Positions 29,169-47,572 of a stretch of 64,000 nt of DNA are shown here, one piece after another. The notes beneath the pieces are model-generated. The model was not told the origin of the DNA, ran no database searches, and saw only the letters and a list, made by a program, of their open reading frames with translations. The first letter of the stretch is position 1. Each line of letters opens with the position of its first letter. Source of the stretch: Thermoanaerobaculia bacterium (GTDB lineage: Bacteria > Acidobacteriota > Thermoanaerobaculia > Gp7-AA8); contig DASWMP010000345.1 in NCBI GenBank assembly GCA_036399695.1, positions 1,478 through 65,477 on the forward strand. The letters run 5' to 3'. Position numbers and translations under genes: made by a program.

Positions 29169-29416
29169 GAGACTCCTTTCGCTTCCCTCCGAAGCGTGAA
29201 TACGAGCGAGTCTGAGCGGTCGGTCTCCTGGCTCTCGGGTCATCCTTCCCACACCACCCTTCCCGCTTTCGCAGTGGGGACCCATCGAGGGTCGGGTGTG
29301 AGTCGTCGCCGAACACAGTGGCGGGGGCCGCGCCGGCTTGAACCGGCTTCCCGTGCACCGCATCAGATGCATGTTGGGAAAGAACTGGGGGCAGATGATA
29401 GCACTGGCCGCGGCCT

Positions 29417-34003: not shown

Positions 34004-34190
34004 GGAGGGCCCGGGGCTCGGGGCTCGGGGCCCGGTGGCATTGACTTAGAGGTTTGCCTCATGTGGGACAGACACTCCTGTCTGTCCGGCCCACCCCCGA
34101 GGTCCATTCCTCCAGACAAGCGGCCGTTCGGGTGCACGGGACAGACAAGAGTGTCTGTCCCACATCTAAAGTCAACGCCATCGGGGCGCT
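34004..34190. mobile_element. MITE-like element of family B, copy 2 (GC-rich end plus GGGACAGACACTC palindromes)
   Basis: Near-identical to the reverse complement of 43112-43306. Imperfect TIRs ttgacttagaggtttgcctcatgtgggacagacactc / gagtgtctgtcccacatctaaagtcaa. Internal gggacagacactcctgtctgtcc palindrome. Confidence 0.7.
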
Positions 34191-34223: not shown

Positions 34224-35051
34224 ATGCTACGCTCTCCCCGGACCCTGAATGCACGACGACGCGGAGCCGGAACCGGGGGGACAGCAGCTTTGAGAGCGAT
34301 CGTCCTTTCCGTGCTGCTTCTGTTGGCGACGGCGGCGCGCGCGCAGGATGCGCTCGTGGCCGGCGCCGACGCCGACCGTCTCGAATCCGGCCATGGCGGC
34401 GGGGCCTCGCTGCTCTGGCTCCATTCCCGCGCCAGCGGCACGTTCTCGGCCGGCGCGGCGTTTCGCACGTTGCCCGGTACGCGCTGGGCTTACGGCACGC
34501 TCGGCCTCACACACCGCCTCACGCCGCTGACCACGCTCAACGGCGAAGCCAGCCTCGGCGGAGGGAGCGACGACGGCGGACGCTTCCGCTACCTCCTGCT
34601 GCGCGGCGGCGTCACTCGCGAGCTGCTGGCGAAGCGGCTTTACGGCGAGGCCGAGTGGCTGCAGGTGGACGTCGCGCGCCAGCAGGAAGGCCTCGTCCGG
34701 CTCGGCGCCATGTACCTGCCGCGCCCGCGGCTGGCGTTGCGCGCCTCGGTCTACGAAGCGCTCTTCGGCGACAGCGACACGACGCTCGGCACGCTGCGCG
34801 CCGACTACGACTTCGGCCGGATCACCGCCATCGGCGGCTTCTCCGGCGGCACCGCGCTGCCGGTGCTGCTGCAGCAGACCGGGAACGATGCCGTGCGGGT
34901 GCGGGAGGCGTTCGGCGGCGTGGCCTTCGACGCGGCTTCGCGCCGCTGGACCGTCATGCTCTCGAATCTTTCCTCCGGCGGCGAAGATCGACGGCGGCTG
35001 TCGGTCTCGTGCCGCATCCCGCTGGCTTCGCCCACGGCAGGCGGGCGATGA
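34224..35051 (+). CDS. Secreted hypothetical protein (275 aa)
   Basis: Signal-like 'ALRAIVLSVLLLLATAARAQDA'. Its stop overlaps the start of the next gene (ATGA). An alternative TTG start lies a few codons downstream. Confidence 0.4.
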   Translation: MLRSPRTLNARRRGAGTGGTAALRAIVLSVLLLLATAARAQDALVAGADADRLESGHGGGASLLWLHSRASGTFSAGAAFRTLPGTRWAYGTLGLTHRLTPLTTLNGEASLGGGSDDGGRFRYLLLRGGVTRELLAKRLYGEAEWLQVDVARQQEGLVRLGAMYLPRPRLALRASVYEALFGDSDTTLGTLRADYDFGRITAIGGFSGGTALPVLLQQTGNDAVRVREAFGGVAFDAASRRWTVMLSNLSSGGEDRRRLSVSCRIPLASPTAGGR

Positions 35052-37207
35052 GCAGCGTCGACGGCAAGGCGGTCGGCACTCCGCGGCGCGTTCCGGTGAT
35101 CGCGCTGATCGTGCTGGTGCTGGCGGTCGGCGTGGGAAGCGCGTTCGTGCGGCTGGCGGACCGCCGCAGCGTGGAGAACCGGCGGCGCGTGGCCTCGGAG
35201 GCGGCGGCGGCGGCGACGGTGCGCATCGAGAGACAGATCGACGCCGCCTTTGCCGCCGCGTCGATCGTGGCCGCGCTGCTGCGTGCGCGCGGCGATGCGG
35301 ACGTGAACACCATCGCCGCAGAGGCCGTGCAGCGGGGAGGCGTCGCCGGCATCGAAGTCGTCGCCGCCACGGCCGTCCCGGCGCCGCCCGGGGCGAGCAC
35401 GGTCCTGATGATGTCGGAGTCGCGGCAGTTGCGAGCCTGCGTGCGCGTGGCGCCGGCGGACCCCCGCTTCGCCGTGGCCATCCTCGACCTGCCGGAGCTG
35501 CTGGCGCGGAGCGGCGTCGACGAGCTGCCGTCGGACGGATACGACTACCAGCTCGTGGCCTCCGGCGCCGCCGCCTCGGGGCGCGCTTTCGTGGTGGCGC
35601 GGTCCTCACCGCTCGAGCTCGCGGAGCCGGTGCGCTCCTCCTTCGCGGTCCCGCAGGGGCGCTGGACGCTCGACGTGGCGCGGCGCGCCGGCTGGCGGAT
35701 GGCGGGAGAGCGGACGCGGGAAATCGCCATCGTCCTGATCGGCAGCCTCCTCTTCGCCCTGTTCGTCTACGACCTGCTGCGGCGGCCGTACGTGCTGGAG
35801 CGGGAAGTCGAGCTGCGCACGCGCAAGATCGTGGAGACGAATCGCCGCCTCACGGCGGAGATCGAGCAGCGGCAGCGTGCCGAGGAGCAGGTCGTCCACG
35901 AGGCCACGCACGACCGGCTGACCGCGCTGCCGAACCGCGTTTACCTGCGCGACCGGATCACGCGCGCCCTCGACCGGGCCCGGTCGGCCAACGCCGTCGG
36001 CTTCGGCGTGCTCGTGATCGACATCGACCGCTTCACCGACGTGAACGACGGGCTCGGACACGACATCGGGGACGAGCTGCTGACCCTCGCGGCGCGGCGC
36101 CTCCAGAGCTGCATCCGCTTCGGCGACGTCCTGGCGCGCGTCGGCGGTGACGAGTTCGCGATCCTCTCGCTGGCCATCGATCCGGCGGAGATCACCGGCG
36201 TGGCCCGCCGGGCGCACGAGGCGCTGGAAGTGCCGTTCGAGGTGGGCGGGCACCGCGTGCAGATGTCGGGCAGCATCGGCATCGCTCTGAGCGCGAGCGG
36301 CTACACCGTCGCCGACGAGCTGCTGCGCGACGCCTATCTGGCCGTGCATCGGGCGCGGCAGCAGGGGGGCGCGTCGCACGTCCTGTTCGACCCGAAGATG
36401 CACGAGCAGGCCGCGGCGGCCCAGCAGATCGAGACGGAGCTGCGCGCCGCGCTCGCGGGCAACGAGCTGCGGCCGTACTTTCAGCCGATCGTCTCCCTCA
36501 CGACCGGGCGCATCACCGGCTTCGAGGCCCTCGTGCGCTGGATCAGCCCGAAGCGGGGCTTCGTCTCCCCCGCCGCGTTCATTCCGGTGGCGGTGTCGAG
36601 CGGCCTGATCATCCCGCTGGACCAGTGGATGATGCGCGAAGCAGCGCGGCAGGTGCACGAGTGGAACAGCCGCCTGCAGCTCGAGCCGCCCCTGACGATC
36701 AGCGTGAACGTCTCCGGCCGCCGGCTCGGGCAGCGCGAGCTGATCGAGGACGTGGCCCGCACGCTCCGCGAGACCGGCATCGACACCCGCTCCCTGCGCC
36801 TGGAGATCACGGAGGGGGAGATGATGGAGCGGCCGGACGAGGTGCTGGCGATCCTGACGGAGCTGAAGCGGATGAACATCACGCTCCTGGTCGACGACTT
36901 CGGCACCGGCTATTCGTCGCTGAGCTACCTGCACAGCTTCCCGATCGACGTCGTCAAGATCGACCAGTCGTTCGTCCGCCGGATGCTGGAGAGCGGCAAG
37001 GACGAGGAGATCGTCCGCGCCGTCATCAACCTGAGCGCCACGCTCGGCCTGCGGGTGATCGCCGAAGGCATCGAGACCGCCGGCCACCTCGCGCGCCTGC
37101 GCGAGCTCGGCTGCGACTACGGCCAGGGCTACCTCTTCTCGAAGCCGGTCGACGCCGCCGCGATCGAAGCCCTGCTGGCGACCAATCCGTCGTGGATTGA
37201 GGATTGA
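35049..37207 (+). CDS. Membrane sensor diguanylate cyclase/phosphodiesterase (GGDEF-EAL)
   Basis: Two TM helices bracketing a periplasmic domain. GGDEF 'RVGGDEFAIL'. EAL 'FEALVRW', 'DDFGTGYSSLSYL'. The final codons (SWIED*) are encoded by the heptamer hairpin. Confidence 0.85.
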
Positions 37208-37324
37208 GGATTGAGGATTGAGGATTGAGAATTGAGGATTGAGGATTGAGGATGGCTGCGCTCCAGGCACCCGGGTCGCCCGAGCGCAGCCAATCCTCAG
37301 TTCTCAATCCTCAATCCTCAATCC
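37194..37324. repeat. Hairpin of family C with heptamer-repeat arms: (GGATTGA)x8 ... (TCAATCC)x4
   Basis: ggattgaggattgaggattgaggattgagaattgaggattgaggattgagg ... cctcagttctcaatcctcaatcctcaatcc; it overlaps the stop codon of the GGDEF-EAL gene. Confidence 0.7.
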
Positions 37325-37359: not shown

Positions 37360-39234
37360 ATGGCGCGCCGTACGAGTGACTACGCTGCCACCGGGAAGCC
37401 GCAGCACTCGTTGCGGGAGCGGTTTGGCGCGTTGCGGAACCTGCCGCCGTTTCTGCGGCTGATCTGGCAGACCAGCCGCTCGCTCACGGTCACGAATGCA
37501 GTGCTGCGGCTGCTGCGGGCGTTTCTGCCGGTGGCGCTGCTCTTCGTCGGGAAGCTGATCATCGACGAGGTGATCCGCCTGGCGTCAGCGGGCGGCGCTC
37601 CAGCCACCCCGCTGGAGTGGTGGGCCTCCGGGCGTGTCGACCGGCTGGCGATGCTGATCGGGCTGGAGCTGGGCATCGCCATACTCTCGGACGTGATCGG
37701 GCGCATCGTCTCGCTGGTGGACTCGCTGCTCTCGGAGCGCTTCACGAACGAGACGAGCATCCGCCTGATGGAGCATGCGGCCACGCTCGACCTCGAGGAC
37801 TTCGAGGACAGCGAGCTGCAGGACCAGCTCGAGCGGGCACGCCGCCAGACGATGGGGCGCAGCTCGCTGCTCACACAACTGCTGGCGCAGGCGCAGGACG
37901 CCGTCACGATCATCGCCTTCGCGGCCGGCCTCATCGCCTACGCTCCCTGGCTGATCCTTCTCCTCGGCATTGCTCTCATCCCCGCCTTCCTCGGCGAGGC
38001 GCACTTCAACGCCGCCAGCTACACGCTCAACTACACGCGCACCCCGGAGCGGCGCGAGCTCGATTACGTCCGCCAGACCGGCGCCGGCGTCGAGACGGCG
38101 AAGGAAGTGAAGATCTTCGGCCTCAACGCCTTCCTCCTCGAGCGCTACCGCATGCTCGCCGATGCTTTCTATCGGGCGAACAAGTCGCTCTCCGTGCGGC
38201 GCGCCTTCTGGGGGAGCGTGCTGACGGCAATCGGCACGCTCGGCTACTACGTGGCGTACGGCTACCTGGCCTGGGGCACGCTGAGCGGCGACTTCACGAT
38301 CGGCGACCTGACGTTCCTGGCCGGCTCGTTCCGCAGGCTGCGCACGCTGCTCGAAGGGCTGCTCACCGGCTTCTCGCAGATGGCCGGGCAGGCGCTGTAT
38401 CTCGACGACCTGTTCTCGTTCTTCCTCATCGAGCCGGAGATCACCTCCCGGCCGGACGCGCTCCCCTTCCCTCGGCCGATGCAGGAGGGGCTGCGCTTCG
38501 AGAACGTCGGCTTCCGCTATCCCGGCGCGGAGCGGTGGGCGGTGCGGAACCTCACGTTTACGCTGCGGGCCGGCGAGGTCGTCGCGCTCGTGGGGGAGAA
38601 CGGCGCGGGGAAGACGACGCTCGTGAAGCTGCTGGCGCGGCTCTACGATCCGGACGAAGGACGGGTGCTGGTCGACGGCCGCGATCTGCGCGAGTACGAC
38701 CTGGAGTCGCTGCGCTCGAACATCGGCGTCATCTTCCAGGACTTCGTGCGCTATCACCTGACGGCGGCGGAGAACATCGCCGTGGGGCGGATCGAAGCGG
38801 CCGGGGACCGGGCGCGGATCGAGACGGCGGCGCGGCGCAGCCTGGCGGACGAGGTGATCCTCCGTCTGCCGAAGCAGTACGACCAGCCGCTCGGGAAGCG
38901 CTTCCGCAAGGGGGTTGAGCTGTCGGGCGGCGAGTGGCAGAAGATCGCCATCGCCCGGGCCTACATGCGGGACGCGCAGCTCCTGATTCTGGACGAGCCG
39001 ACGGCGGCGCTGGATGCGCGGGCGGAGTTCGAGGTGTTCCAGCGCTTCCGTGAGCTGAGCTCCGGCAGGACGACGGTGCTGATCTCGCACCGGTTCTCGA
39101 GCGTGCGCATGGCCGATCGCATTCTCGTGCTGGCGGACGGGCAACTCGAGGCTGCCGGGACGCACGAGGAGCTGCTGGCGGCAGGGGGGCGGTATGCGGA
39201 GTTGTTTGAACTGCAGGCGGAGGGGTATCGGTGA
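37360..39234 (+). CDS. ABC transporter, fused permease/ATPase (MsbA-like exporter family)
   Basis: Six-TM N-terminal domain. Walker A 'GENGAGKTT'. ABC signature 'LSGGEWQKIAIARA'. Walker B 'LLILDEPTAALD'. Confidence 0.85.
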   Translation: MARRTSDYAATGKPQHSLRERFGALRNLPPFLRLIWQTSRSLTVTNAVLRLLRAFLPVALLFVGKLIIDEVIRLASAGGAPATPLEWWASGRVDRLAMLIGLELGIAILSDVIGRIVSLVDSLLSERFTNETSIRLMEHAATLDLEDFEDSELQDQLERARRQTMGRSSLLTQLLAQAQDAVTIIAFAAGLIAYAPWLILLLGIALIPAFLGEAHFNAASYTLNYTRTPERRELDYVRQTGAGVETAKEVKIFGLNAFLLERYRMLADAFYRANKSLSVRRAFWGSVLTAIGTLGYYVAYGYLAWGTLSGDFTIGDLTFLAGSFRRLRTLLEGLLTGFSQMAGQALYLDDLFSFFLIEPEITSRPDALPFPRPMQEGLRFENVGFRYPGAERWAVRNLTFTLRAGEVVALVGENGAGKTTLVKLLARLYDPDEGRVLVDGRDLREYDLESLRSNIGVIFQDFVRYHLTAAENIAVGRIEAAGDRARIETAARRSLADEVILRLPKQYDQPLGKRFRKGVELSGGEWQKIAIARAYMRDAQLLILDEPTAALDARAEFEVFQRFRELSSGRTTVLISHRFSSVRMADRILVLADGQLEAAGTHEELLAAGGRYAELFELQAEGYR

Positions 39235-39244
39235 CGTGGGGGAG

Positions 39245-39351
39245 TGCTGAATCGATGTTCAATGCTGAATGCTGAATGTTGAATGCTGAACAAGGCGACG
39301 GCCACTCACGAGCACTTCAACATTCAACATTCAGCATTGAACATTGACGCT
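39245..39351. repeat. Hairpin of family C with (TGCTGAATG)-type repeat arms
   Basis: gctgaatcgatgttcaatgctgaatgctgaatgttgaatgctgaa ... ttcaacattcaacattcagcattgaacattga. Confidence 0.65.
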
Positions 39352-39735
39352 GATCTCACCCCATTCGGTCGATCGCTCGCGGAGTCTTTGCTTTGCCTCC
39401 CCGAGTCTTCGATTGAAGTGACCCCAATCATTCAGTCGTTCGCGGAGTCTTCGCTTTGACTCCCGGAGTCTTCGATTGATATCGCCCATGTCATTCGCTC
39501 GTTCGCGGAGTCTTTGCTTTGCCTCCCCGAGTCTTCGATTGATATCGGCCCATATCAATCGTTCGTTCGCGGAGTCATTGCTTTGACTCGCGGAGTCTTC
39601 AATTGATATCGCCCCATATCAATCGTTCGCTCGCGGAGTCTTCGCTTTGACTCCCGGAGTCTTCGATTGATATCGGCCCATATCATTCGGTCGTTCGCGG
39701 AGTCTTTGCTTTGACTCCCGGAGTCTTCGAGTGAG
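39352..39735. repeat. Tandem repeat, about 6 copies of a roughly 63-bp unit
   Basis: Units such as cccatatcaatcgttcgttcgcggagtcattgctttgactcgcggagtcttcaattgatatcgg repeat head-to-tail. Each unit carries an internal cggagtcttcg duplication. The whole unit is conserved, with no unique spacers. Confidence 0.7.
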
Positions 39736-39814
39736 CTCGGCCCTGTCAATCGCATGCTCGCCGAGGCCAGTGATGGACTCGCCGGGGCCGCGGTTGACGT
39801 CGGTGGGGCCTGGC

Positions 39815-40474
39815 TCAGCGTCGGGTGGACAGCACGCTCAGCTCGGCCACGAGGCGAATGAGGCGGCGGCCTTCTTCGTCGGCCTGTTCGTAGGCGCGGC
39901 AGAGGGTTTCGAGCTCGTCTTCGTCCTCGTAGGCGGCGACGGTAAAGCCGTCGTCGGGCTGGGAGGCGGTGGACGTCACGCTGCGGGTCCAGAGGCCGTC
40001 GTTGAGGTGATAGCTGGTGAAGCCGCGGGTGCGGGCGCGGCGGGCGCCGCCGAGGTCCGCGAGCATCGCTGCGCCGGCCACGTCGGCGGCGTTGCCGCTG
40101 GCGTTCGAACGCTGGGCCGCCAGGATCTTGCCGACGAACGTGGCCATCATCTCCTGCAGGCGGAGGTGAGAATCGCCGACGGCATGGAGGAAATGCACGC
40201 CGGTATGAGAGACGAGGCTCTTTCCGTCGCCGCCAGGATCGCGGACGACCGTGGAGCGGACGACCTCACAGGCAAACTCGACGTCCTCTCCCTGCCAGCG
40301 GTAGACGAGAAGAAAAGCGTCTCCCAGCTCCACGCGGCCATAATGTTCCAGGAACGCGCCCGCCACCCCGATGTCGAGGATGAGCGCGTTCTGGCCGTTC
40401 ATGGTGGCCAGGATCGGTTTCGCCAGTTTGAGCCGCTGAAACTCTCGGCGGTCGTCATAGCCCATCGGACGCAT
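39815..40474 (-). CDS. PilZ-domain protein with a conserved C-terminal domain of unknown function (paralog 1)
   Basis: PilZ motifs 'RREFQRL' and 'DIGVAGA'. C-terminal 'GFTVAAYEDEDELETLCRAYEQADEEGRRLIRLVAELSV' is shared with the gene at 42461-43090. Confidence 0.55.
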   Translation of the reverse strand: MRPMGYDDRREFQRLKLAKPILATMNGQNALILDIGVAGAFLEHYGRVELGDAFLLVYRWQGEDVEFACEVVRSTVVRDPGGDGKSLVSHTGVHFLHAVGDSHLRLQEMMATFVGKILAAQRSNASGNAADVAGAAMLADLGGARRARTRGFTSYHLNDGLWTRSVTSTASQPDDGFTVAAYEDEDELETLCRAYEQADEEGRRLIRLVAELSVLSTRR

Positions 40475-40506
40475 ATGGTAAGCGCTTTGCTCGGGATACG
40501 GCAGAG

Positions 40507-42495
40507 GTGCCGTTGAGCCGAAAACCCGAACGCGATCGACGCAGCATGTGGCGCGTCGGTCCGGAGAGTACGTGGACGACGATTCTGCCCGTCGCGTTCA
40601 TCATCGTCTCCCTCCTCTCCCTGCTGATCCTGCCGATCGCGGTGGCGACGCATACGTCCAAGATGAGACGTGAGATCACGAGCGTGGCCGAGCCGGCCCG
40701 CCGTGCCGCCAACCAGATCCAGGTATCGCTGGCGCAGGAGCTCGACAAGATCATCGCCTTCCAGGTGACGGGGCAGGCGCAGTACCGCCGCGAGTACGAG
40801 GCGCTGGGGCAGCAGCAGGAAGTGAATCGCGCCGTGCTGGCGCAACAGATCCCGCTCCTCCACGAGAAGCTCGCCGGCGACCTGGCGGAGCTCTTCGTCG
40901 AAGCGCGCAAGTGGCACGGCGGCGTGGTCCGCAACGAGCTCTTCACGCGCCAGCTCCCGCCCGAAGTGTTCCAGACGCGGCTCTTCGAGCAGCATCCCGC
41001 GTACGAGCGCTCGCTGGAGAAGGCGTCGGAGCTGGAGGTCGACATCCAGCTCGCCATCGACCAGCGGTTGCAGCGCATCCAGTCGGCCGAGCAGCTCAAT
41101 GTCTCGCTGACGATCGTCCTCTCGCTGCTGGCCCTCACGTCGGCCCTCCTCGTCGCCGGCCTCGGGCGGCAGATGCGGCTCCTGGCAAAGGAAGCGACGC
41201 GCCGCCGCCTCGAGGCGGAGCGGGAGGCGAACGAGGCCAAGACCGCGCGCACGGCCGCGGAGCGGGAGGAACGGCGTGCGGCCTTCCTGGCGGCCGCGGG
41301 GCAGCAGATGACCTCCTCGCTCGACTATGAGGAAACGGTGGCCATGCTGGCGCATCTCGTGGTGCCGAACCTGGCGGAGCTCTGCGTCGTCGACATGCTC
41401 GAGCCGGACGGCTCGCTGCGCCGCACCGCCGCCGCGCACCGCAACCCGGAGGACGACATCGTGCTGACGTCCGCCATCGGACAGGTGCGCCGCGAGGTGC
41501 CGGAAGCGCTCGTGCGCATCCTGCAGGACCGCGAACCGCGCCGCGTCGGCGCGTCGTCCGGCCTGCTCCCCTTCATCGCCGGCCCGCAGCAGGGAGCGTC
41601 GACGCGCGTGATGATCTTCGCGCCGCTGGTGAGCCGCGGTGAGACGCTCGGTCTCGTCTCGGCCGTGTCGACGGAGACCCGTCCCTTCACCGACGACGAC
41701 GTGACGATGTTCGCCGAGCTGACGCGCCATGCGTCGCTGGCCATCGACAACGCGCGCCTCTACCACGAGTCGCAGCAGGTGGTGCGGGCGCGCGAGGAAG
41801 TGCTGGCCATCGTCTCGCACGACCTCCGCAACCCGCTGAGCGGCGTCACGCTCGGCGCTTCGCTGATGCAGATGTCGGACACGCTGTCGGAAGAGGACCG
41901 GGAACAGGTCGACACGATCGTGCTCTCGGCGAAACGGATGTCGCGCCTGATCGAAGACCTGCTCGACGTGACGCGCCTCGACGGCGGCAAGCGGCTGCCG
42001 ATCGATCCCGGCCGCGTCGAGGTCGCGTCGCTGCTGAACGAGTTGAACGACATCTTCAAGGCGCAGTTCGCGGCCAACGAGGTCTCGCTGCAGCTCCACA
42101 TCGAGAACGGCGCCAGCGTCGTCTGGGCGGACCGCCACCGCGTCCTGCAGGTGCTGTCGAATCTCCTCGGGAACGCGCTGAAGTTCACGCCGCAGGACGG
42201 CTTCGTGTCCATCCGCGTGACGCCGCAGGACGGTTACGTGCTCTTCTCCGTCATCGATTCGGGCCCCGGCATTCCGCCGGAGAATCTCAACGACGTCTTC
42301 AACCCTTACTGGCAGGCCAAGCGCACGGAACGCATGGGCGCGGGGCTCGGGCTGCCGATCGCCAAGGGCATCGTCGAAGCACACGGCGGCCGCATCTGGG
42401 TCGAGAGCGAGCAGGGTGTGGGGACGAAGTTCTTCTTCACGCTGCCGGCGTCGGTCGAGGTCACGCGCGCGGCGGAATCTGCAACGCGTCACTGA
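40507..42495 (+). CDS. Sensor histidine kinase (CHASE3-like periplasmic domain, TM, GAF, HisKA, HATPase_c)
   Basis: 'IVSHDLRNPLSGV' H-box. 'LLGNALKFT' N-box. 'IDSGPGIP' and 'GAGLGLPIAKGIVEAHGGRIWVES' G-boxes. GAF 'FAPLVSRGETLGLVSAV'. Confidence 0.85.
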   Translation: MPLSRKPERDRRSMWRVGPESTWTTILPVAFIIVSLLSLLILPIAVATHTSKMRREITSVAEPARRAANQIQVSLAQELDKIIAFQVTGQAQYRREYEALGQQQEVNRAVLAQQIPLLHEKLAGDLAELFVEARKWHGGVVRNELFTRQLPPEVFQTRLFEQHPAYERSLEKASELEVDIQLAIDQRLQRIQSAEQLNVSLTIVLSLLALTSALLVAGLGRQMRLLAKEATRRRLEAEREANEAKTARTAAEREERRAAFLAAAGQQMTSSLDYEETVAMLAHLVVPNLAELCVVDMLEPDGSLRRTAAAHRNPEDDIVLTSAIGQVRREVPEALVRILQDREPRRVGASSGLLPFIAGPQQGASTRVMIFAPLVSRGETLGLVSAVSTETRPFTDDDVTMFAELTRHASLAIDNARLYHESQQVVRAREEVLAIVSHDLRNPLSGVTLGASLMQMSDTLSEEDREQVDTIVLSAKRMSRLIEDLLDVTRLDGGKRLPIDPGRVEVASLLNELNDIFKAQFAANEVSLQLHIENGASVVWADRHRVLQVLSNLLGNALKFTPQDGFVSIRVTPQDGYVLFSVIDSGPGIPPENLNDVFNPYWQAKRTERMGAGLGLPIAKGIVEAHGGRIWVESEQGVGTKFFFTLPASVEVTRAAESATRH

Positions 42496-43090
42496 CGCTC
42501 AGCTCCGCGAAGAGGCGAATCAGGCGTCGCCCTTCGTCGTCGGAAGCCTGGTAGACGTGACAGAGGCGCTGCATCTCTTCGCTGTCTTCCGTACGCGCGA
42601 CGGTGAAGCCGGCCACCGGTTGTTCGGGGAGGAAGATGCGCCGGCGCACCCAGACGCCCTGCTCGAGCCGGTACGACAGGAACTGCGCGTCGACACCGCG
42701 TACGGTCTTGTCGCCGTCGACGGCTGCCTCGGGTGCGATGGTGTTCGGCGGGAGGCGGCGCCGCGTCTCGAACTCCGCCACGACGAGCTGCGCGAGCATG
42801 GCCCGCAGCCGGTCGCCCGATTCACCGATCGCGGCGAGGAAGCGCAGCCCCGAGTGCAGCGCGCCGCCGCTCTCGGTGGTGCGCACGACTTCGCACTTGA
42901 GGGCGATGTCTTGACGGTCGTAGGTGAAGCGAAGGTCGTCGTAGGTCTTCGGGAGGGGAGCGGAGTGCGTGATCCCGGCGCCGAGCACCCCGATCTCGAC
43001 GATCGTCACCGCGACCGCGCCGGCCATCGCCGCGATGGGAGGAACGAGATGGAGGCGCTGGAACTCGCGGCGCTCTTCGCCCTGCAGCAT
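42461..43090 (-). CDS. PilZ-domain protein with a conserved C-terminal domain of unknown function (paralog 2)
   Basis: Start 'MLQGEERREFQRLHLV'. 'EIGVLGAG'. C-terminal 'GFTVARTEDSEEMQRLCHVYQASDDEGRRLIRLFAELSV'. The track ORF's N-terminal extension runs into the MITE and is rejected. Confidence 0.55.
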   Translation of the reverse strand: MLQGEERREFQRLHLVPPIAAMAGAVAVTIVEIGVLGAGITHSAPLPKTYDDLRFTYDRQDIALKCEVVRTTESGGALHSGLRFLAAIGESGDRLRAMLAQLVVAEFETRRRLPPNTIAPEAAVDGDKTVRGVDAQFLSYRLEQGVWVRRRIFLPEQPVAGFTVARTEDSEEMQRLCHVYQASDDEGRRLIRLFAELSVSDALQIPPRA

Positions 43091-43111
43091 TCCACGATTG
43101 TAAGGTATGGA

Positions 43112-43306
43112 CGGGGGCCCGGGGGTCGGGGCCCGGGGCTCGGGGCTCAATGGCGTTGACTTTAGATGTGGGACAGACACTCTTATCTGTCCCGTGCACC
43201 CGAACGGCCGCTTTGTCTGGAGGACCTCCGGGGTGGGCCGGACAGACAGGAGTGTCTGTCCCACATGAGGCAAACCTCTAAGTCAACGCCATTGGGGCCC
43301 AGGGCC
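43112..43306. mobile_element. MITE-like element of family B, copy 3 (inverted relative to copy 2)
   Basis: Its reverse complement matches 34004-34190 almost base-for-base, including ttgacttagaggtttgcctcatgtgggacagacactcctgtctgtcc. Confidence 0.7.
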
Positions 43307-44119
43307 CTAGTGCACGTCGGTGCGCATGCGCATGCTGGCCATGTAGTTGCGGCGGACGCGCTCGCGGTAGTGGTGGGTGCGGGCGGTGACGCGCTGCAGG
43401 TAGTTCTGCGTCTCGGGGAACGGCGGGATGCCGCCGTGGCGGCTCACGTTGCCTTCACCGGCGTTGTAGGCGGCCAGGGCCAGGTTCGGATCGTCGAAGC
43501 GCTGGAGCAGGTACGCCAGGTACTTCGTGCCGGCGGCGATGTTCTCCTGCGGGTCGAACGGATCGGAGACGCCGAGGAGCGTCGCGGTGCTGGGGATGAT
43601 CTGCATCAGGCCCTGCGCGCTCTTGTTCGACACGAGGCGCGGGCGGAAGTCGGACTCCGTCGAGACGACGGCGGCGATCAGCTCGGGGTCGAGCCCCTGG
43701 CGCTGCGCTTCGCGGTAGATGATGTCGCCGTACGGCACCTGCGTGCGGAAGAACTCTTCCTTCGCCACTTCGAGGGAGAGCGTGCGGCCCGCGGGCTCGG
43801 CCTGCGGCGCGAGCAGCGCTTCGCGGCTTTTGCGCGTCGTGAAAATCGGGAAGGTGTTGTTTTGCGTGACCGAAGCACTCCGGGTGACGGCGGCGCGCTG
43901 CAGGAAGTCGAAGTTGAGGCTCGTGGCATCGGAGGGGATGCCGAGCGCGCCGAAGGCGAGAGGAACACCGAGGAGCACGGCGACACCGCGGGATGCGGCT
44001 TTGAAGGCCAGGCGCCAGCGGCTGGCGTGGCGGCGTGCTTCGACCTGGCAGTTGCAGATGACGCGAAAGTCGTCTGCATGTTTGCGGCTGGTGCGGCGTC
44101 TACTGTCGTCGGACTTCAT
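43307..44119 (-). CDS. Membrane-anchored lytic transglycosylase (SLT domain)
   Basis: 'VVSTESDFRPRLVSNKSAQGLMQIIPSTA' and 'AAYNAGEGNV' SLT motifs. N-terminal TM helix 'AVLLGVPLAFGALGI'. Confidence 0.7.
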   Translation of the reverse strand: MKSDDSRRRTSRKHADDFRVICNCQVEARRHASRWRLAFKAASRGVAVLLGVPLAFGALGIPSDATSLNFDFLQRAAVTRSASVTQNNTFPIFTTRKSREALLAPQAEPAGRTLSLEVAKEEFFRTQVPYGDIIYREAQRQGLDPELIAAVVSTESDFRPRLVSNKSAQGLMQIIPSTATLLGVSDPFDPQENIAAGTKYLAYLLQRFDDPNLALAAYNAGEGNVSRHGGIPPFPETQNYLQRVTARTHHYRERVRRNYMASMRMRTDVH

Positions 44120-44320
44120 ACGGCAGGTCGCAATGGGCAAAAGGCGGACCATCTCGCCCGGCCCAAAACCCAAAGTGCTGATGGTGAATGAAATCGAGTT
44201 GTGCGAGCCGTAGGAATGCCACTGACCCCTTCGGAGGACGCTCGCCGATTGCACCCGGCGCAAACGTGCGCTCCATCACATTCGGCGACTGCGGCACACC
44301 GCTTGCCAATTGCACCGAAC

Positions 44321-45133
44321 GTGAGACACCCGATCCTGTTTTTCGTTTCGTTCATTTTACTGTCGGCCGCACCGCGGGTGCTGGCGCAGAAGACCACTTC
44401 CACTACTTCTACCACGTCCAGCACCGCATCGAAGACGGCCAGCGCACCCTGCCCTGTGAAATGGGAGACGAAGCGTGCCGGCATCGAGCATCGCGAGATC
44501 CGCTGCATCGACGACACGAGCGATCTGGACGTTCATGTCGTGCGCATCGATCCGCGCAAGGTGACGCTCGATACCGTCGTCGTTTCGGGCTCGAATGCGC
44601 GAACGATTGCGCGCGAGCACGGTGCGACCTTCGCCATCAACGCCAGTTTCTTCGACAAGGCACGAACTCCCCTCGGGCTGATCGTCAAAGACGGTGAGCT
44701 CGTGAACAAGATCAACAACTCGAGCTGGCAATCTGTCTTTCTCGTCACCGGTCGCGGCAGCTCCTACATCATTCTGCCTCCGAGCTGGAGCGAATTCCGT
44801 AACCGCGCTCACATGGCCGTGCAGGCCGGTCCGCGGCTCGTCACTCGCGGCCACACCGTGAAGGTGAACCGCGGCTACAAAGCCGCGCGCGCGGGCGTCT
44901 GCATCCAGTGGGATCGGGATCTCCTTTTCTTCGCCACACCGCAGGACCGTAAGTTCACGACCACCGAGATCGCCCGCGTGGCGCGCATCGCCGAGGACAA
45001 GGGCGGCCTCGCCTGCCGCGACGCAATGCTCTTCGACGGCGGTCATTCGACGACGCTGTTCATCGACGGTGAAGGCAGCGATGACGTCGTTGTGCACGGC
45101 GGCCCCGTGCCGGTGTTCATCGTGGGGAAGTGA
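44321..45133 (+). CDS. Secreted phosphodiester glycosidase (NAGPA-like, PF09992) family protein
   Basis: GTG start with signal peptide 'ILFFVSFILLSAAPRVLAQ'. 'GATFAINASFFD...LGLIVKDGELV'. 'FDGGHSTTLFIDGEG'. Confidence 0.55.
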   Translation: MRHPILFFVSFILLSAAPRVLAQKTTSTTSTTSSTASKTASAPCPVKWETKRAGIEHREIRCIDDTSDLDVHVVRIDPRKVTLDTVVVSGSNARTIAREHGATFAINASFFDKARTPLGLIVKDGELVNKINNSSWQSVFLVTGRGSSYIILPPSWSEFRNRAHMAVQAGPRLVTRGHTVKVNRGYKAARAGVCIQWDRDLLFFATPQDRKFTTTEIARVARIAEDKGGLACRDAMLFDGGHSTTLFIDGEGSDDVVVHGGPVPVFIVGK

Positions 45134-45251
45134 TCGATTCCGATCCCGTGGCGATGGTCAGTGGTCGGTGGTCAGTTGCTGGCGCTCCGTAGCCCAGGAA
45201 GTGGCCACCGAACGCGTTGCTAACCGACCACCGGCCACTGACCACCGCCGG

Positions 45252-45632
45252 CTACTGCCTCGTGAAGAGAGGCTTCGTCTGGTCGTTGAACAGGATGACC
45301 AGCGCGTAGATGCCCAGCAGTGTACCGGGCCCGAGATGGGGCAGGTGCAGGATCGCCAGGATGATGGCGAGGACGCGAGCCCACTCGCGGAACTTCAGCA
45401 GCCCCCAGCCGGCGATGATGTTCGGGAGTGCGAGCACCGCCAGCATCACGCCGATCATGCTGACGCAGCCGCCGCCCAGCATCAGCGCGCCACGCTCTTC
45501 CTGCGTCTCCCCGGCCACCCCGCCGACGCCCATCATCGTGGCCCCGCCGAGAAAGAAGAACGCCGCTCCGATGCCGTACAGCAGGCCGAAGACGATGAAG
45601 AGGATGCCGATGATCTTCACGTGCTGCTGCAT
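45252..45632 (-). CDS. Small multi-TM membrane protein (126 aa)
   Basis: RBS AAAGGAG 5 nt before the ATG 'MQQHVKIIGILFIVFGLLYG'. Four predicted TM helices. Confidence 0.5.
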   Translation of the reverse strand: MQQHVKIIGILFIVFGLLYGIGAAFFFLGGATMMGVGGVAGETQEERGALMLGGGCVSMIGVMLAVLALPNIIAGWGLLKFREWARVLAIILAILHLPHLGPGTLLGIYALVILFNDQTKPLFTRQ

Positions 45633-45649
45633 GGGGCTCCTTTTTTTGA

Positions 45650-45733
45650 GTTGGCAGTTGGCAGTTGGCGGTTGGCAGTGTCGGAGCCAGAGTCTTTCTA
45701 CTGCCAACCGCCTACTGCCAACCGCCAACTAGC
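45650..45733. repeat. Hairpin of family C with (GTTGGCR)-repeat arms
   Basis: gttggcagttggcagttggcggttggcag ... ctgccaaccgcctactgccaaccgccaact; it contains the TAG stop of mtgA. Confidence 0.7.
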
Positions 45734-46643
45734 CCGCCGGCGGCGCGGTCTCGGTAGCTTGATTCGTATCTGTTGGCTCTGAGGTTTCAACCGTGCCGGT
45801 CGGAGGGGCCGTTTCGGTGGTGTCGGTCGTCTCGGTTGATGGGGGGGCGAGATCGGTGTCGGTGGCGGCGGGCTCGGTGGTCTCGGTCGTTGCCGTCGTC
45901 TCCGTCGGCGTCGCGGGCTTCTCCGCCGGCTTCTTCTCGGTGAGCACTTCCTTCTCGAGGGTGTAGCCCCAGCGGCGCATGCGGGAGAGGATCATGCGCT
46001 GGCGGGCGCGGAGGCGTTTGTTCGGCTTGCCGGGATTCATGATGCGCGGGTTCGGCAGGCAGCCGCCGAGCAGCGCCGCCTGCGACGGCGTGAGCGAAGC
46101 GGCCGGTTTGTCGAAGTAGAAGCGCGACGCCGCTTCGGCCCCGTAGACGCGCTCCCCCATCTCCACCACGTTCAGGTAAAGCTCGAGGATGCGTTTCTTC
46201 GAGAGGTTCTTCTCGAGCGAGCGGGCGATGAAGTACTCGCGCACTTTCCGCAGCGGGTTGCGCGAGGGAGAGAGGTACAGGTTCTTCGCGAGCTGCTGCG
46301 TGATCGTGGAGCCGCCGTGCGAGATCTTCCCGCGCTTCCAGTTCCGCTCGAACGCTTCCTTCACCGCTTCGGTATCGACCCCTTCGTGCTCGTAGAACGA
46401 ATTGTCCTCGGCCACGAGCACGGCCCGGCGGAGGTTCGGGGAGATGCGTCCGTAGGGGACCCAGCGGTACTGGATCGTGTCGTCCTTGCCGGCGTCGCGC
46501 AGCTCTTCGCGGCGCTGCTCCATGAAGGCGGTGGTCTTCGGCGGCTCCTTCGCCAGCTTCTCAACATCCGGAAAAGTCACGACTTCCCAGCCGAGCCAGA
46601 GCAGGAGGACGGCCACGATGATGAGGAGTGTGCGCTTCAGCAC
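45729..46643 (-). CDS. mtgA: Monofunctional biosynthetic peptidoglycan transglycosylase (GT51) with a Thr/Glu/Pro-rich C-terminal tail
   Basis: GTG start with TM helix 'VLKRTLLIIVAVLLLWLG'. GT51 motifs 'EDNSFYEHEGVD', 'GGSTITQQLAKN', 'RKVREYFIARSLE'. Tail 'TETTATTETTEPAATDTD'. Confidence 0.75.
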   Translation of the reverse strand: MLKRTLLIIVAVLLLWLGWEVVTFPDVEKLAKEPPKTTAFMEQRREELRDAGKDDTIQYRWVPYGRISPNLRRAVLVAEDNSFYEHEGVDTEAVKEAFERNWKRGKISHGGSTITQQLAKNLYLSPSRNPLRKVREYFIARSLEKNLSKKRILELYLNVVEMGERVYGAEAASRFYFDKPAASLTPSQAALLGGCLPNPRIMNPGKPNKRLRARQRMILSRMRRWGYTLEKEVLTEKKPAEKPATPTETTATTETTEPAATDTDLAPPSTETTDTTETAPPTGTVETSEPTDTNQATETAPPAG

Positions 46644-46679
46644 GTGCCTCGATTGTAAAGGAGACCTAAAATAAGAGCC

Positions 46680-47252
46680 ATGCGACGACTCCTGATCGCC
46701 ATTTCCCTGCTTCTCATCCCGGCGGCGGCGTTCGCGTTCGATACGACGCGCGGCCGCGCCAATCGCATCGGGATCCTCCTCCCGGCCGAATTCGACGGTG
46801 ACCGTTACGTGCACGACTCGGTACGCAAGTACCTCCACTCCGAGCTGCGCAAGGAAGGCTTCGTCCCCTTCAGCATGCACGACACCATCGACGAGCTGCG
46901 CGAGCGCGACGACTCCGACGCCCAGTTCTACATCGAGATCGCCGCGGGCGACGCGGGCTCGGAGACGTACGGCGGCATCGGTGTCGGCGGCGTGCACGGT
47001 GGCGTCGACCTCGGCGTGGTGTCTTCGCGCATGTCGGTCGTGCTGCACGTCTACGACGGCCGGACGCTCGAACGGATCGATACCTTCGACCTCTCGGAGC
47101 GCAGCACGATGGTCGCGCCGACCGCGGTCAGCCTCGGCGGCCGCCACGCCTGGGCGTGGGTGGCGATGCCGTTTGCCGAATGGGCACAGAGCCGCCGCGC
47201 CGCACGCGCCGTGGCCCGCGACGTCGCGCAGCGCCTCGCGAGCTTCGAGTGA
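46680..47252 (+). CDS. Secreted hypothetical protein
   Basis: Signal peptide 'MRRLLIAISLLLIPAAAFAFD'. Coding-like composition. Divergent from mtgA. Confidence 0.45.
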   Translation: MRRLLIAISLLLIPAAAFAFDTTRGRANRIGILLPAEFDGDRYVHDSVRKYLHSELRKEGFVPFSMHDTIDELRERDDSDAQFYIEIAAGDAGSETYGGIGVGGVHGGVDLGVVSSRMSVVLHVYDGRTLERIDTFDLSERSTMVAPTAVSLGGRHAWAWVAMPFAEWAQSRRAARAVARDVAQRLASFE

Positions 47253-47572
47253 CGCCGGTCATCGTCCTGACGACCGTCGGCGGCGACTTTGACGCACGCG
47301 CGCTGGCGCGCAGTCTGGTGGAGTTGCGCGTGGCCGCGTGCGTGAACATCGTGGAGCGCGTGGTGTCGGTGTATCGCTGGGAAGGCGAGATTACCGAAGA
47401 CGCGGAGCAGTTGCTCGCGATCAAGACGATGGACGCGCAGGTGGACGCCCTGCGGGATGCACTGTTCGCGCGGCATCCCTATGAAGTGCCGGAGTTCGTG
47501 GTGGTGCCGGTGGCCGGGATCTCCGAAGCATATGAGGCGTGGCTGCGTGGGGCCGTGCTGGCGGAGAAGTAG
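47249..47572 (+). CDS. cutA: Divalent-cation tolerance protein CutA
   Basis: GTG start overlapping the upstream stop (GTGA). 'VIVLTTVGGDFDARALARSLVELRVAACVNIVERVVSVYRWEGEI...VPEFVVVPVAG' is typical CutA1. Confidence 0.7.
   Translation: MTPVIVLTTVGGDFDARALARSLVELRVAACVNIVERVVSVYRWEGEITEDAEQLLAIKTMDAQVDALRDALFARHPYEVPEFVVVPVAGISEAYEAWLRGAVLAEK

Follow-up and report, generated by a model that had tools for sequence, protein, structure and literature searches.

Paralogous PilZ proteins with an undescribed C-terminal domain flank an orphan histidine kinase in Thermoanaerobaculia

PilZ proteins are the commonest receptors of c-di-GMP, and few of them have known partners. To our knowledge, c-di-GMP signalling has hardly been characterised in the Acidobacteriota, which are abundant in soils. 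Sda, KipI and similar small cytoplasmic anti-kinase proteins bind directly to an orphan or sporulation kinase and thereby modulate it. In Pseudomonas aeruginosa, the PilZ adaptor HapZ (PA2799) controls the histidine kinase SagS, and it acts in a c-di-GMP-dependent manner on this sensor kinase rather than on an enzyme or a motor (10.1101/2020.02.11.943704). [quoted passage not shown] A sequence-similarity network of PilZ proteins contains numerous small clusters whose C-terminal domains lack annotation, as well as a "cluster 15", in which PilZ is followed by a C-terminal HTH (10.1101/2020.02.11.943704).

Here, we describe a locus, in a soil lineage of the Acidobacteria, at which two genes, A and B, encode proteins consisting of an N-terminal PilZ domain and a shared C-terminal domain, termed X, and bracket the gene for a membrane histidine kinase (Table 1). 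Both open reading frames lie where a preliminary description of this DNA had placed them, and they are, as it had proposed, paralogues: BLASTP aligns A and B over 209 columns at 38% identity (E 2e-38). The motifs that it had quoted, RREFQRL, [DE]IGVxGA and GFTVA..ED..E..LC..Y..D(E/D)EGRRLIRL.AELSV, are genuine and are conserved in alignments of homologues. Counted from the first ATG, gene A encodes 219 amino acids; its true start is likely M4 at 40465, as deposited, from which the product of 216 amino acids is identical to the deposited protein P0121 (216 aa). The X-domain HMM matches A with an E-value of 8e-40. The product of B is identical to the deposited protein P0001, and its AF2 model has a pLDDT of 81.

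Table 1. Features of the PilZ-X/kinase locus, in coordinates of the window (the whole 64-kb stretch of DNA that was analysed).
Feature	Coordinates	Strand	Basis or remark
GGDEF-EAL gene	~35048-37207		GGDEF and EAL motifs intact
Gene A, PilZ-X protein	39815..40474	-	ORF; 38% identity to B
X domain of A, ~residues 151-214	39833..40024	-	alignments
PilZ domain of A, ~residues 8-122	40109..40453	-	alignment to B and homologues
Conserved cis element AGCAAAGCGCTTACCAT in A/kinase spacer	40475..40491	-	unique in window
Membrane sensor histidine kinase, 662 aa	40507..42495	+	Pfam
Antisense 3'-end overlap of B and kinase, 35 bp	42461..42495	.	sequence
Gene B, PilZ-X protein, 209 aa	42461..43090	-	ORF
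X domain of B, residues 134-203	42482..42691	-	three beta strands, then two helices
Disordered linker of B between PilZ and X, residues 112-133	42692-42757	-	
PilZ domain of B, residues 6-111	42758..43075	-	six-stranded barrel and C-terminal helix
-10-like TACAAT, 6 nt before the ATG of B	43097..43102	-	sequence

The orientation of the three genes had also been described correctly, in that A is divergent from the kinase gene, across a spacer of ~41 bp, and B is convergent with it. The 3' overlap of B and the kinase recurs in 64 of 74 loci with a median length of 35 bp, and insertions between the two genes are rare, occurring only at L010 and L075 among these 74 loci. Within the overlap, the frame under selection is that of B's tail. 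A functional dual-coding role for the C-terminal tail of the kinase was rejected because B's tail is conserved even where the genes do not overlap, and the kinase tail is thus a passenger frame. The conserved element in the A/kinase spacer includes a -10-like TACCAT, 9 nt ahead of the M4 ATG of A. At 42 of 63 loci, the motif GCAA-N3-GC[CT][TC][AG]CC precedes A, and in four more it lies near the start of the kinase gene, with an enlarged spacer. A TAnAAT box is visible 6-9 nt ahead of the ATG in nearly all B loci; the position of TACAAT in the window suggests that B may be transcribed from a separate promoter as a leaderless mRNA. A scan of positions 39600-44400 for consensus promoters and terminators returned nothing.

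By the definition given in 10.1101/814665, the N-terminal domains of A and B are canonical PilZ domains. Protein B scores 24.3 bits against the Pfam PilZ profile (PF07238), above the gathering cut-off of 22.5; A gives no match to it at E<=0.1, although a precomputed hit to PF07238 is recorded for many orthologues of the A type. The C-terminal helix of the domain is kept in both proteins, at residues 91-111 in the AF2 model of B. [quoted passage not shown] Neither has the canonical second motif: the sequence is DIGVAG in protein A, EIGVLG in protein B, and both carry Gly where the Ser of [D/N]hSxxG is expected. This Gly-for-Ser replacement is invariant in both subfamilies, and B additionally has Glu instead of Asp or Asn; the hydrophobic "h" position and the last Gly of the motif are retained. 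Because of the Gly in both proteins and the Glu in B, ligand binding is uncertain, and A and B are putative c-di-GMP receptors.

The C-terminal domain had been presented as unannotated, and this description stands: no Pfam or NCBIfam family matched X, searches of the PDB by sequence and by fold gave no relative, and the possibility that it belongs to a well-known family, raised at the same time, came out negative in both profile and fold searches. X is a domain absent from database descriptions. It is confidently predicted (pLDDT 85) to adopt a beta3-alpha2 fold, and it is net acidic in every subfamily, with a median pI of 5.1-5.7. Invariant in X are W147, Q157-P158, G161-F-T-V, L176-C177 and R188/R192. 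Two PDB matches, to Pex/PadR (E 0.44) and to AUGMIN subunit 2 (E 0.067), were short, non-significant and absent from the fold search, and were treated as chance.

The kinase has a cytoplasmic N-terminal peptide, a first transmembrane segment (~aa 24-46), a helical extracytoplasmic region of ~150 amino acids and a second transmembrane segment (~aa 199-221), followed by a coiled coil, GAF (272-414), HisKA (428-494) and HATPase_c (542-648) domains. Pfam supports the HATPase_c (1.5e-30), HisKA (3.4e-18) and GAF_2 (1.3e-09) assignments, and with an H-box of SHDLRNP, the phospho-acceptor His438 and two transmembrane segments the protein is a class I (HisKA) kinase with GAF. Its cytoplasmic parts comprise the N-terminal peptide (residues 1-23), the juxtamembrane coiled coil with GAF (222-414) and DHp-CA (420-662). 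In the alignment of kinase orthologues, the N-terminal peptide ERRS.W R..P..W is invariant and the two hydrophobic segments are conserved. The sensor region had been labelled CHASE3, a label rejected for lack of support at the sequence level: Pfam yielded no CHASE3 match at E<=10, whether for the kinase of the window or for any of 13 orthologues, and the profile built from this region returned nothing relevant among PDB sequences. The kinase itself contains no REC domain by Pfam. As had been noted, it also has no cognate response regulator in the window, where phmmer searches with CheY, PhoB and Spo0F (E<=1) recovered no REC-domain open reading frame.

The co-occurrence of the three genes in other genomes, on which the preliminary description had made its reading depend, is borne out. 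Genomes of Thermoanaerobaculia species carry the B-kinase-A trio at 63 loci, and two X-domain genes are present in 63 of the 87 sources scanned. Sources with a single such gene are short contigs, loci of paralogues other than A and B, or four exceptions with enough flanking sequence: L049 and L073 keep B and the kinase and are missing A, and L068 and L077 keep B without this kinase. Of the 80 metagenome loci that were selected by the kinase, 76 are informative for the A side, which is occupied in 75, and 49 for the B side, which is occupied in 48. Around the trio extends a longer conserved block, YfhO-CutA-Transgly-SLT-B-HK-A-HAD-CoA transferase, in which the HAD hydrolase follows A in 51 loci and the CoA transferase in 58. 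As this block reaches beyond the trio and includes functionally unrelated genes, CutA, the HAD hydrolase and the CoA transferase, synteny alone is not specific evidence that A and B are coupled to the kinase. In the window genome, a rearrangement has replaced everything beyond A and left A-HK-B intact. We discarded the idea that the A side is a synteny breakpoint, and hence that the A-kinase adjacency is selected, because most genomes have the HAD hydrolase and CoA transferase next after A and the break beyond A is limited to the genome of the window. A GGDEF-EAL gene had been reported as a neighbour of the trio; it is present, with intact motifs, and is specific to this genome, none of the loci carrying the trio having one. 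Both this gene and an ABC transporter were dismissed as parts of the system, since they are missing from every trio-carrying locus. GGDEF-EAL genes were seen upstream at L079 alone, where the B-like gene is 47% identical and the contig ends just after it.

The PilZ-X family is lineage-restricted and comprises 378 clusters at 50% identity; a profile search with its divergent members returned only 13 proteins. The canonical motif [D/N/E]hSxxG is kept in 43 of 110 distant members of at least 190 amino acids, and 35 of the 110 have Gly; P0293 is an example of a Ser-type paralogue. Of 35 distant members compared with Pfam, 31 pass the PilZ threshold. These counts make it very likely that the family ancestor bound c-di-GMP. 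Distant paralogues adjoin cox, ccm, beta-lactamase-family, NUDIX and large secreted-protein genes, and no kinase adjoined them in the six contexts examined. One protein, P0378 (377 aa), has only the C-terminal part of X behind a low-complexity N-terminus and was disregarded as a probably miscalled open reading frame.

We propose that PilZ-X proteins most likely act as c-di-GMP-controlled protein-binding adaptors. Cyclic di-GMP would bind the N-terminal arm and barrel, and, by analogy with MapZ and HapZ, binding would reposition the C-terminal helix of the PilZ domain and the linker, altering what X can contact. A and B form a duplicate pair of long standing that has become fixed around a single membrane GAF histidine kinase that lacks a response regulator. 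They would couple c-di-GMP, or each other's abundance, to the kinase or phosphatase output of this protein, or relay that output. Transcription of the three genes is intertwined as well, A and the kinase sharing the divergent control region of ~41 bp and B and the kinase being transcribed into each other. Our best guess is that the kinase is the partner of A and B; we infer both the physical contact and the direction of control. To the reading as a whole, adaptors under c-di-GMP control of which this pair serves the flanked kinase, we assign a probability of roughly 0.45. Conservation of the trio from both B's and the kinase's sides, the overlap, the spacer element and the lack of REC domains in 64 kb hint at such coupling, and it is weakened by the longer block, the kinase-free paralogues, the altered second motif, the loci without A or the kinase, the unsupported CHASE3 label and the absence of GGDEF-EAL from the other trio loci. 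The stronger proposal, that X is a new signalling domain plugging PilZ proteins directly into a response-regulator-less kinase, would make A and B its dedicated partners (e.g. one promoting its kinase state and the other its phosphatase state, or both serving as its non-REC outputs) and the trio a self-contained c-di-GMP/two-component hybrid circuit with a stoichiometry set by the head-to-head promoter shared with A and the overlapping, tail-to-tail transcription of B. We consider it improbable. The six paralogue contexts without an adjoining kinase argue that X is not kinase-specific and not a dedicated kinase-docking domain.

The arrangement could also reflect inherited synteny only, A and B being ordinary PilZ-X effectors with targets elsewhere in a clade whose neighbourhoods rearrange slowly. 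This is somewhat unlikely, even though the conserved block runs past the trio, from YfhO, CutA, Transgly and SLT to the HAD hydrolase and CoA transferase, other PilZ-X paralogues occur in unrelated contexts, and all sampled genomes come from one class, with protein identities of 53-81%: the same gene is bracketed by a pair of paralogues from one family, overlapping 3' ends and a shared control region of 41 bp tie all three genes together physically, synteny in the window breaks off precisely at A's outer boundary rather than within the trio, and B and the kinase are so rarely separated (L010 and L075 among 74). Rather doubtful in turn, and modifying the adaptor model more than excluding it, is the idea that c-di-GMP binding has been lost in A and B, which would then serve as partners independent of the ligand or as modulators of an anti-kinase type. 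The invariant Gly of DIGVAG and EIGVLG in the two subfamilies is consistent with such a loss, as are its repeated occurrence in PilZ evolution (10.1101/814665) and the parallel of PilZ proteins that have kept the fold and shed the motifs, but the disordered N-terminal RRxxxR arm, invariant in both subfamilies, is hard to explain without a ligand, and the "h" position and final Gly of the second motif are kept. Finally, PilZ-X proteins might be c-di-GMP-responsive transcription regulators resembling MrkH or PlzA, in which DNA would be contacted by X or by the C-terminal helix of PilZ, and A and/or B would act on the A/kinase spacer element. This is very unlikely. X was unlike HTH and RHH domains in every test run, its candidacy as a ribbon-helix-helix DNA-binding domain fell for want of any RHH profile or fold similarity, and its acidity makes a protein-binding adaptor a better fit than a DNA binder, so that X suits protein binding more than nucleic-acid binding.

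This analysis defines a sizeable, lineage-specific PilZ family whose confidently folded output domain has no database description, and it points to an orphan GAF kinase as one concrete candidate partner of two PilZ-X subfamilies. If the coupling is true, it would be the second case after HapZ-SagS, and an architecturally different one, of c-di-GMP feeding into two-component signalling via a PilZ adaptor; if it is false, X is still a new domain worth entering in domain databases.

Among the known systems, the helical hairpin of Sda presumably resembles the alpha1-alpha2 part of X; neither sequence nor fold comparison gave a match, and these anti-kinase proteins are not known to have a nucleotide-sensing domain. 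MapZ and PilZ adaptors share the PilZ C-terminal helix with A and B, but MapZ-CheR1 and PilZ-FimX have no appended domain, and these adaptors act on a methyltransferase and a pilus regulator rather than on a kinase. Cluster 15 proteins likewise consist of PilZ and a small C-terminal output domain, from which X differs in being acidic and, in the tests run, neither HTH nor RHH. In xPilZ-PilZ proteins (YcgR/PP4397, MotI/DgrA, PlzD, MrkH and PlzA) the extra domain is N-terminal and PilZ-like, and RxxxR is located in the linker between the two domains (10.1101/814665). In A and B, the PilZ domain is N-terminal, with RxxxR at the start of the protein and no PilZN, PilZNR or PilZN2/3 before it, and the extra domain is C-terminal, beta3-alpha2 and unrelated to PilZ. 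HapZ is, like A and B, a small PilZ protein of the cytoplasm whose N-terminal arm carries RxxxR. It is, however, a single-domain protein, with the REC domain of a hybrid kinase as its docking site, a type to which the two-domain A and B, beside a kinase without REC, do not belong; they differ further in their extra domain without a detectable relative, in being two paralogues and in being genomically locked to the kinase. The preliminary description had not recognised this architecture from characterised systems; for a PilZ adaptor on a histidine kinase, HapZ-SagS is a precedent (10.1101/2020.02.11.943704). The paired PilZ-X proteins and their kinase hint at a new wiring of c-di-GMP into two-component signalling.

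The contig (66% GC) comes from a Thermoanaerobaculia (Acidobacteriota) metagenome-assembled genome and encodes two proteins, A and B, that each join a PilZ domain to a C-terminal domain, X, and that flank a histidine kinase. Both are identical to deposited proteins named 'MAG TPA: PilZ domain-containing protein [Thermoanaerobaculia bacterium]'. As the preliminary description held, they are paralogues (38% identity over the whole length, E 2e-38). The kinase comprises a short cytoplasmic N-terminus, TM1, a helical extracytoplasmic region of ~150 residues, TM2 and a charged coiled coil, followed by GAF, HisKA (His438) and HATPase_c domains. It contains no receiver domain, and a phmmer search of the window's six-frame ORFs with CheY, PhoB-REC and Spo0F detected none at E<=1, which bears out the earlier remark that the 64-kb window holds no cognate response regulator. 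The CHASE3 label once attached to the kinase is unsupported, since neither it nor any of 13 orthologues matches Pfam CHASE3 even at E<=10 and a profile of the sensor region retrieved nothing from PDB sequences. Ahead of TM1, the kinase carries an unusually conserved cytoplasmic peptide, ERRS(I/M)WRVGPESTW, with the pattern ERRS.WR..P..W, in which R11, R12, S13, R16, P19 and W23 are invariant across 14 orthologues; an Arg-rich juxtamembrane coiled coil is the second cytoplasmic feature of such conservation. We speculate that these two features are candidate docking sites for the PilZ-X proteins.

Features of the window around the PilZ-X genes and the kinase
Feature	Position	Strand	Remarks
Cobalamin riboswitch	29201-29378	-	Rfam RF00174, 74.5 bits, E 1.6e-16
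Palindromic element, two copies	34017-34181; 43150-43310		inverted orientation; ~165-290 bp, 90-98% identical
GGDEF-EAL gene	~35048-37207	+	GGDEF, EAL and DDFGTG motifs intact; N-terminal membrane sensor region
Intergenic hairpins of tandem heptamers	37194-37324; 39238-39361
ABC exporter	37360-39234	+
Tandem array	39369-39752		six copies of a 64-nt unit, 86% matches; directly downstream of A
Gene A	39815-40474	-	219 aa from first ATG; 216 aa as deposited, start M4
A/kinase spacer	40466-40506		~41 bp
Spacer element AGCAAAGCGCTTACCAT	40475-40491	-	unique in window
TACCAT in spacer element	40475-40480	-	9 nt before the M4 ATG of A
Kinase	40507-42495	+	662 aa, between A and B
Conserved N-terminal peptide of kinase	40507-40575		kinase residues 1-23
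B/kinase overlap	42461-42495		35 bp
Gene B	42461-43090	-	209 aa
TACAAT	43097-43102	-	6 nt before the ATG of B
Cell-wall-related neighbourhood	43307-47572		B side

With each GTDB species represented by a single genome, a scan yielded 79 loci, all from Thermoanaerobaculia/Acidobacteriota, and the order SLT(+) B(+) HK(-) A(+), where SLT denotes an SLT lytic transglycosylase gene and HK the kinase, is kept in nearly all loci with sufficient flank. When 87 sources (the related loci L001-L086 and the window) were scanned with an X-domain HMM, 63 contained both PilZ-X genes. The 24 with a single such gene include short contigs and five loci of paralogues other than A and B, and four of them are real exceptions with adequate flank: two (L049 and L073) have B and the kinase but no A, and two (L068 and L077) have B without the trio's kinase, L068 carrying an unrelated MASE1-PAS hybrid kinase further along. 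From the kinase side, among 80 metagenome loci chosen through peptides of the kinase sensor domain, 75 of the 76 informative for the A side carry a PilZ-X gene there, as do 48 of the 49 informative for the B side. The three genes thus co-occur in other genomes, and the preliminary description is not refuted on this point.

B converges on the kinase, and the 3' ends of the two genes overlap, as they do in 64 of 74 related loci (from L001-L081; median 35 bp, mostly exactly 35, others 38-65). Because the B tail, ELSVSDALxIPP, is kept even in loci without the overlap, sequence comparison indicates that the last residues of the kinase are a passenger frame that runs to its stop inside the conserved codons of B. 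Since a terminator would not fit between the two genes, the 3' ends of their transcripts must be mutually antisense. On the other side, A and the kinase are divergent, and the element AGCAAAGCGCTTACCAT in their spacer could be a promoter, 5'UTR or operator. In 42 of 63 loci a variant of it, GCAA-N3-GC[CT][TC][AG]CC, stands no more than 120 nt upstream of A, and in four more it remains beside the kinase start despite a longer spacer (46/63 in total). A TAnAAT box (TACAAT, TAAAAT or TAGAAT) stands 6-9 nt ahead of the ATG in nearly all B loci (upstream regions of L003-L054). A consensus promoter scan found nothing. Since -10-like boxes sit 6-9 nt before both ATGs in nearly all genomes, these sequences suggest that A and B are each transcribed from a promoter of their own, as leaderless or near-leaderless mRNAs.

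Pfam PilZ detects B above threshold (24.3 versus 22.5 bits), and A alone falls short of it. An AlphaFold2 model of B (75 homologues; mean pLDDT 81, pTM 0.71) predicts a six-stranded barrel (residues 12-87) and a C-terminal helix (91-111), a predicted arrangement that corresponds to the canonical PilZ layout of barrel plus C-terminal helix (10.1101/814665), and then a disordered linker (114-133). The motif (E/A)Q(K/R)(A/S)NA(R/S)G at the end of this helix occurs in A and many paralogues and is lost in B. The A and B subfamilies share an invariant N-terminal arm, RREFQR (RxxxR). The second c-di-GMP motif, currently defined as [D/N]hSxxG (10.1101/814665), reads DIGVAG in A and EIGVLG in B, with Gly for Ser invariant in both subfamilies. 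Distant family members are often canonical at this site (e.g. DLSLDG, NLSLYG, DISNHG); among 110 representatives of at least 190 residues, the position is Ser in 43 and Gly in 35. Because distant members keep the canonical motif and 31 of 35 divergent members pass Pfam PilZ, the family is PilZ in origin and probably c-di-GMP-binding. For A and B themselves, the preserved, disordered RxxxR arm makes binding plausible, if unproven; that these two, with their invariant Gly, no longer bind c-di-GMP appears unlikely, and this is independent of the readings weighed below.

Beyond the linker, the model of B contains a compact C-terminal unit of strands 137-143, 146-152 and 161-165 followed by helices 170-182 and 185-203, and X modelled alone reached pLDDT 85. 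X matches nothing in Pfam or NCBIfam, its fold has no Foldseek match in the PDB (best E 1.5), and its profile gives only non-significant matches to PDB sequences. The domain therefore remains unannotated, as first described, where 'no known relative' covers solved structures and Pfam only. Family-wide alignments show an invariant Cys (the LC of helix 1), an invariant Trp and a Gln-Pro loop in X. Searching 1.84 billion representatives with an X-only profile returned 378 clusters at E<=1e-3 and 213 at E<=1e-10; among the 150 matches listed, 106 span 190-260 residues and carry X C-terminally, the shorter ones are apparently fragments, and all source-named members come from Thermoanaerobaculia/Acidobacteria MAGs. 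Six contexts of paralogues 25-35% identical to A and B were examined: a cytochrome oxidase operon, beta-lactamase-family genes, ccm/DUF480 genes (in two places), a Laminin_G_3 giant protein, and a Beta_helix/Calx-beta protein followed by NUDIX. No histidine kinase adjoins any of the six, which indicates that X serves a lineage-specific PilZ family as an output module of general use and is not dedicated to kinases.

The trio is part of a longer conserved block. The B side of this block includes CutA, a monofunctional transglycosylase, sometimes a NAGPA-family (phosphodiester glycosidase) gene, and the SLT lytic transglycosylase, which lies immediately upstream of B in almost all genomes; on the A side, 51 loci have a HAD hydrolase and 58 a CoA transferase. 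In the window, which has no HAD or CoA-transferase homologue anywhere in its 64 kb, these A-side neighbours are replaced by the tandem array, the ABC exporter and the GGDEF-EAL gene. The GGDEF-EAL gene is indeed present beside the trio, as had been pointed out, but neither it nor the exporter adjoins the trio in any trio-carrying related locus (~60 genomes), and their proximity is therefore specific to this genome and not to be taken as part of a system. The tandem array is likewise absent from all related loci; each unit holds a GGAGTC-N8-GACTCC hairpin, and a CRISPR-like reading was rejected because the whole unit repeats. The palindromic element, each copy of which has an internal 36-nt inverted repeat, occurs only twice in the window. 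The pair brackets the ~9-kb segment from the GGDEF-EAL gene to B, one copy occupying the SLT-B interval, which in other genomes is a short spacer; such a pair could mediate inversion or be a trace of the rearrangement that placed the GGDEF-EAL and ABC genes beside A. The heptamer hairpins, GGATTGA x8.6 opposite an inverted copy 37 bp away and a TGCTGAA-type pair past the ABC gene, have counterparts in the HK-A spacer of L009 and the SLT-B spacers of L030 and L046, and other genomes of the clade have similar palindromes built from different heptamers. They may be lineage-typical terminators or REP-like elements.

We propose that PilZ-X proteins act as cytoplasmic adaptors, in which the PilZ half would read c-di-GMP, a capacity that some branches may have lost, and X, the acidic half, would touch a protein partner through the flexible linker. 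Among possible partners of the A and B subfamilies, the kinase between them, with no response regulator in its neighbourhood, would be the best candidate. The probability that A and B are coupled to the kinase is, in our estimate, about 0.45, the functional link resting on gene order within one slowly rearranging lineage. Because the block exceeds the trio and the neighbourhood is generally stable across the clade (53-81% protein identity), co-occurrence alone is weak evidence of function, and the same stability would fit inherited synteny, with A and B acting on targets elsewhere. We regard that reading as somewhat unlikely; the rearrangement in the window left A-HK-B intact, and its break falls exactly at the outer edge of A. 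A role for A and B as transcription factors is improbable. The last strand and two helices of X resemble CopG-type proteins by eye, which prompted a ribbon-helix-helix comparison; hhalign gave 0.5%, and the fold matches include no RHH or HTH. Since this fold is unsupported and X is net acidic in every subfamily (median pI 5.1-5.7), X is more likely to bind protein than DNA.

The joining of PilZ to an undescribed C-terminal domain is a fresh variation on a known theme, and a conserved PilZ-X pair that flanks an orphan kinase, with transcription units that overlap, is an unusual arrangement that yields a testable hypothesis for the coupling of A and B to this kinase. Our literature search found no paper tying PilZ or c-di-GMP to Thermoanaerobaculia; many small PilZ clusters carry unannotated C-terminal domains (10.1101/2020.02.11.943704). 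The closest precedent is HapZ, a single-domain PilZ protein that, when c-di-GMP is high, docks on the SagS REC domain to control phosphotransfer (10.1101/2020.02.11.943704), and by analogy the PilZ-X proteins and their kinase may work similarly. In contrast to HapZ and SagS, A and B have two domains and the kinase lacks a REC domain, so that the present case is not of the HapZ type.
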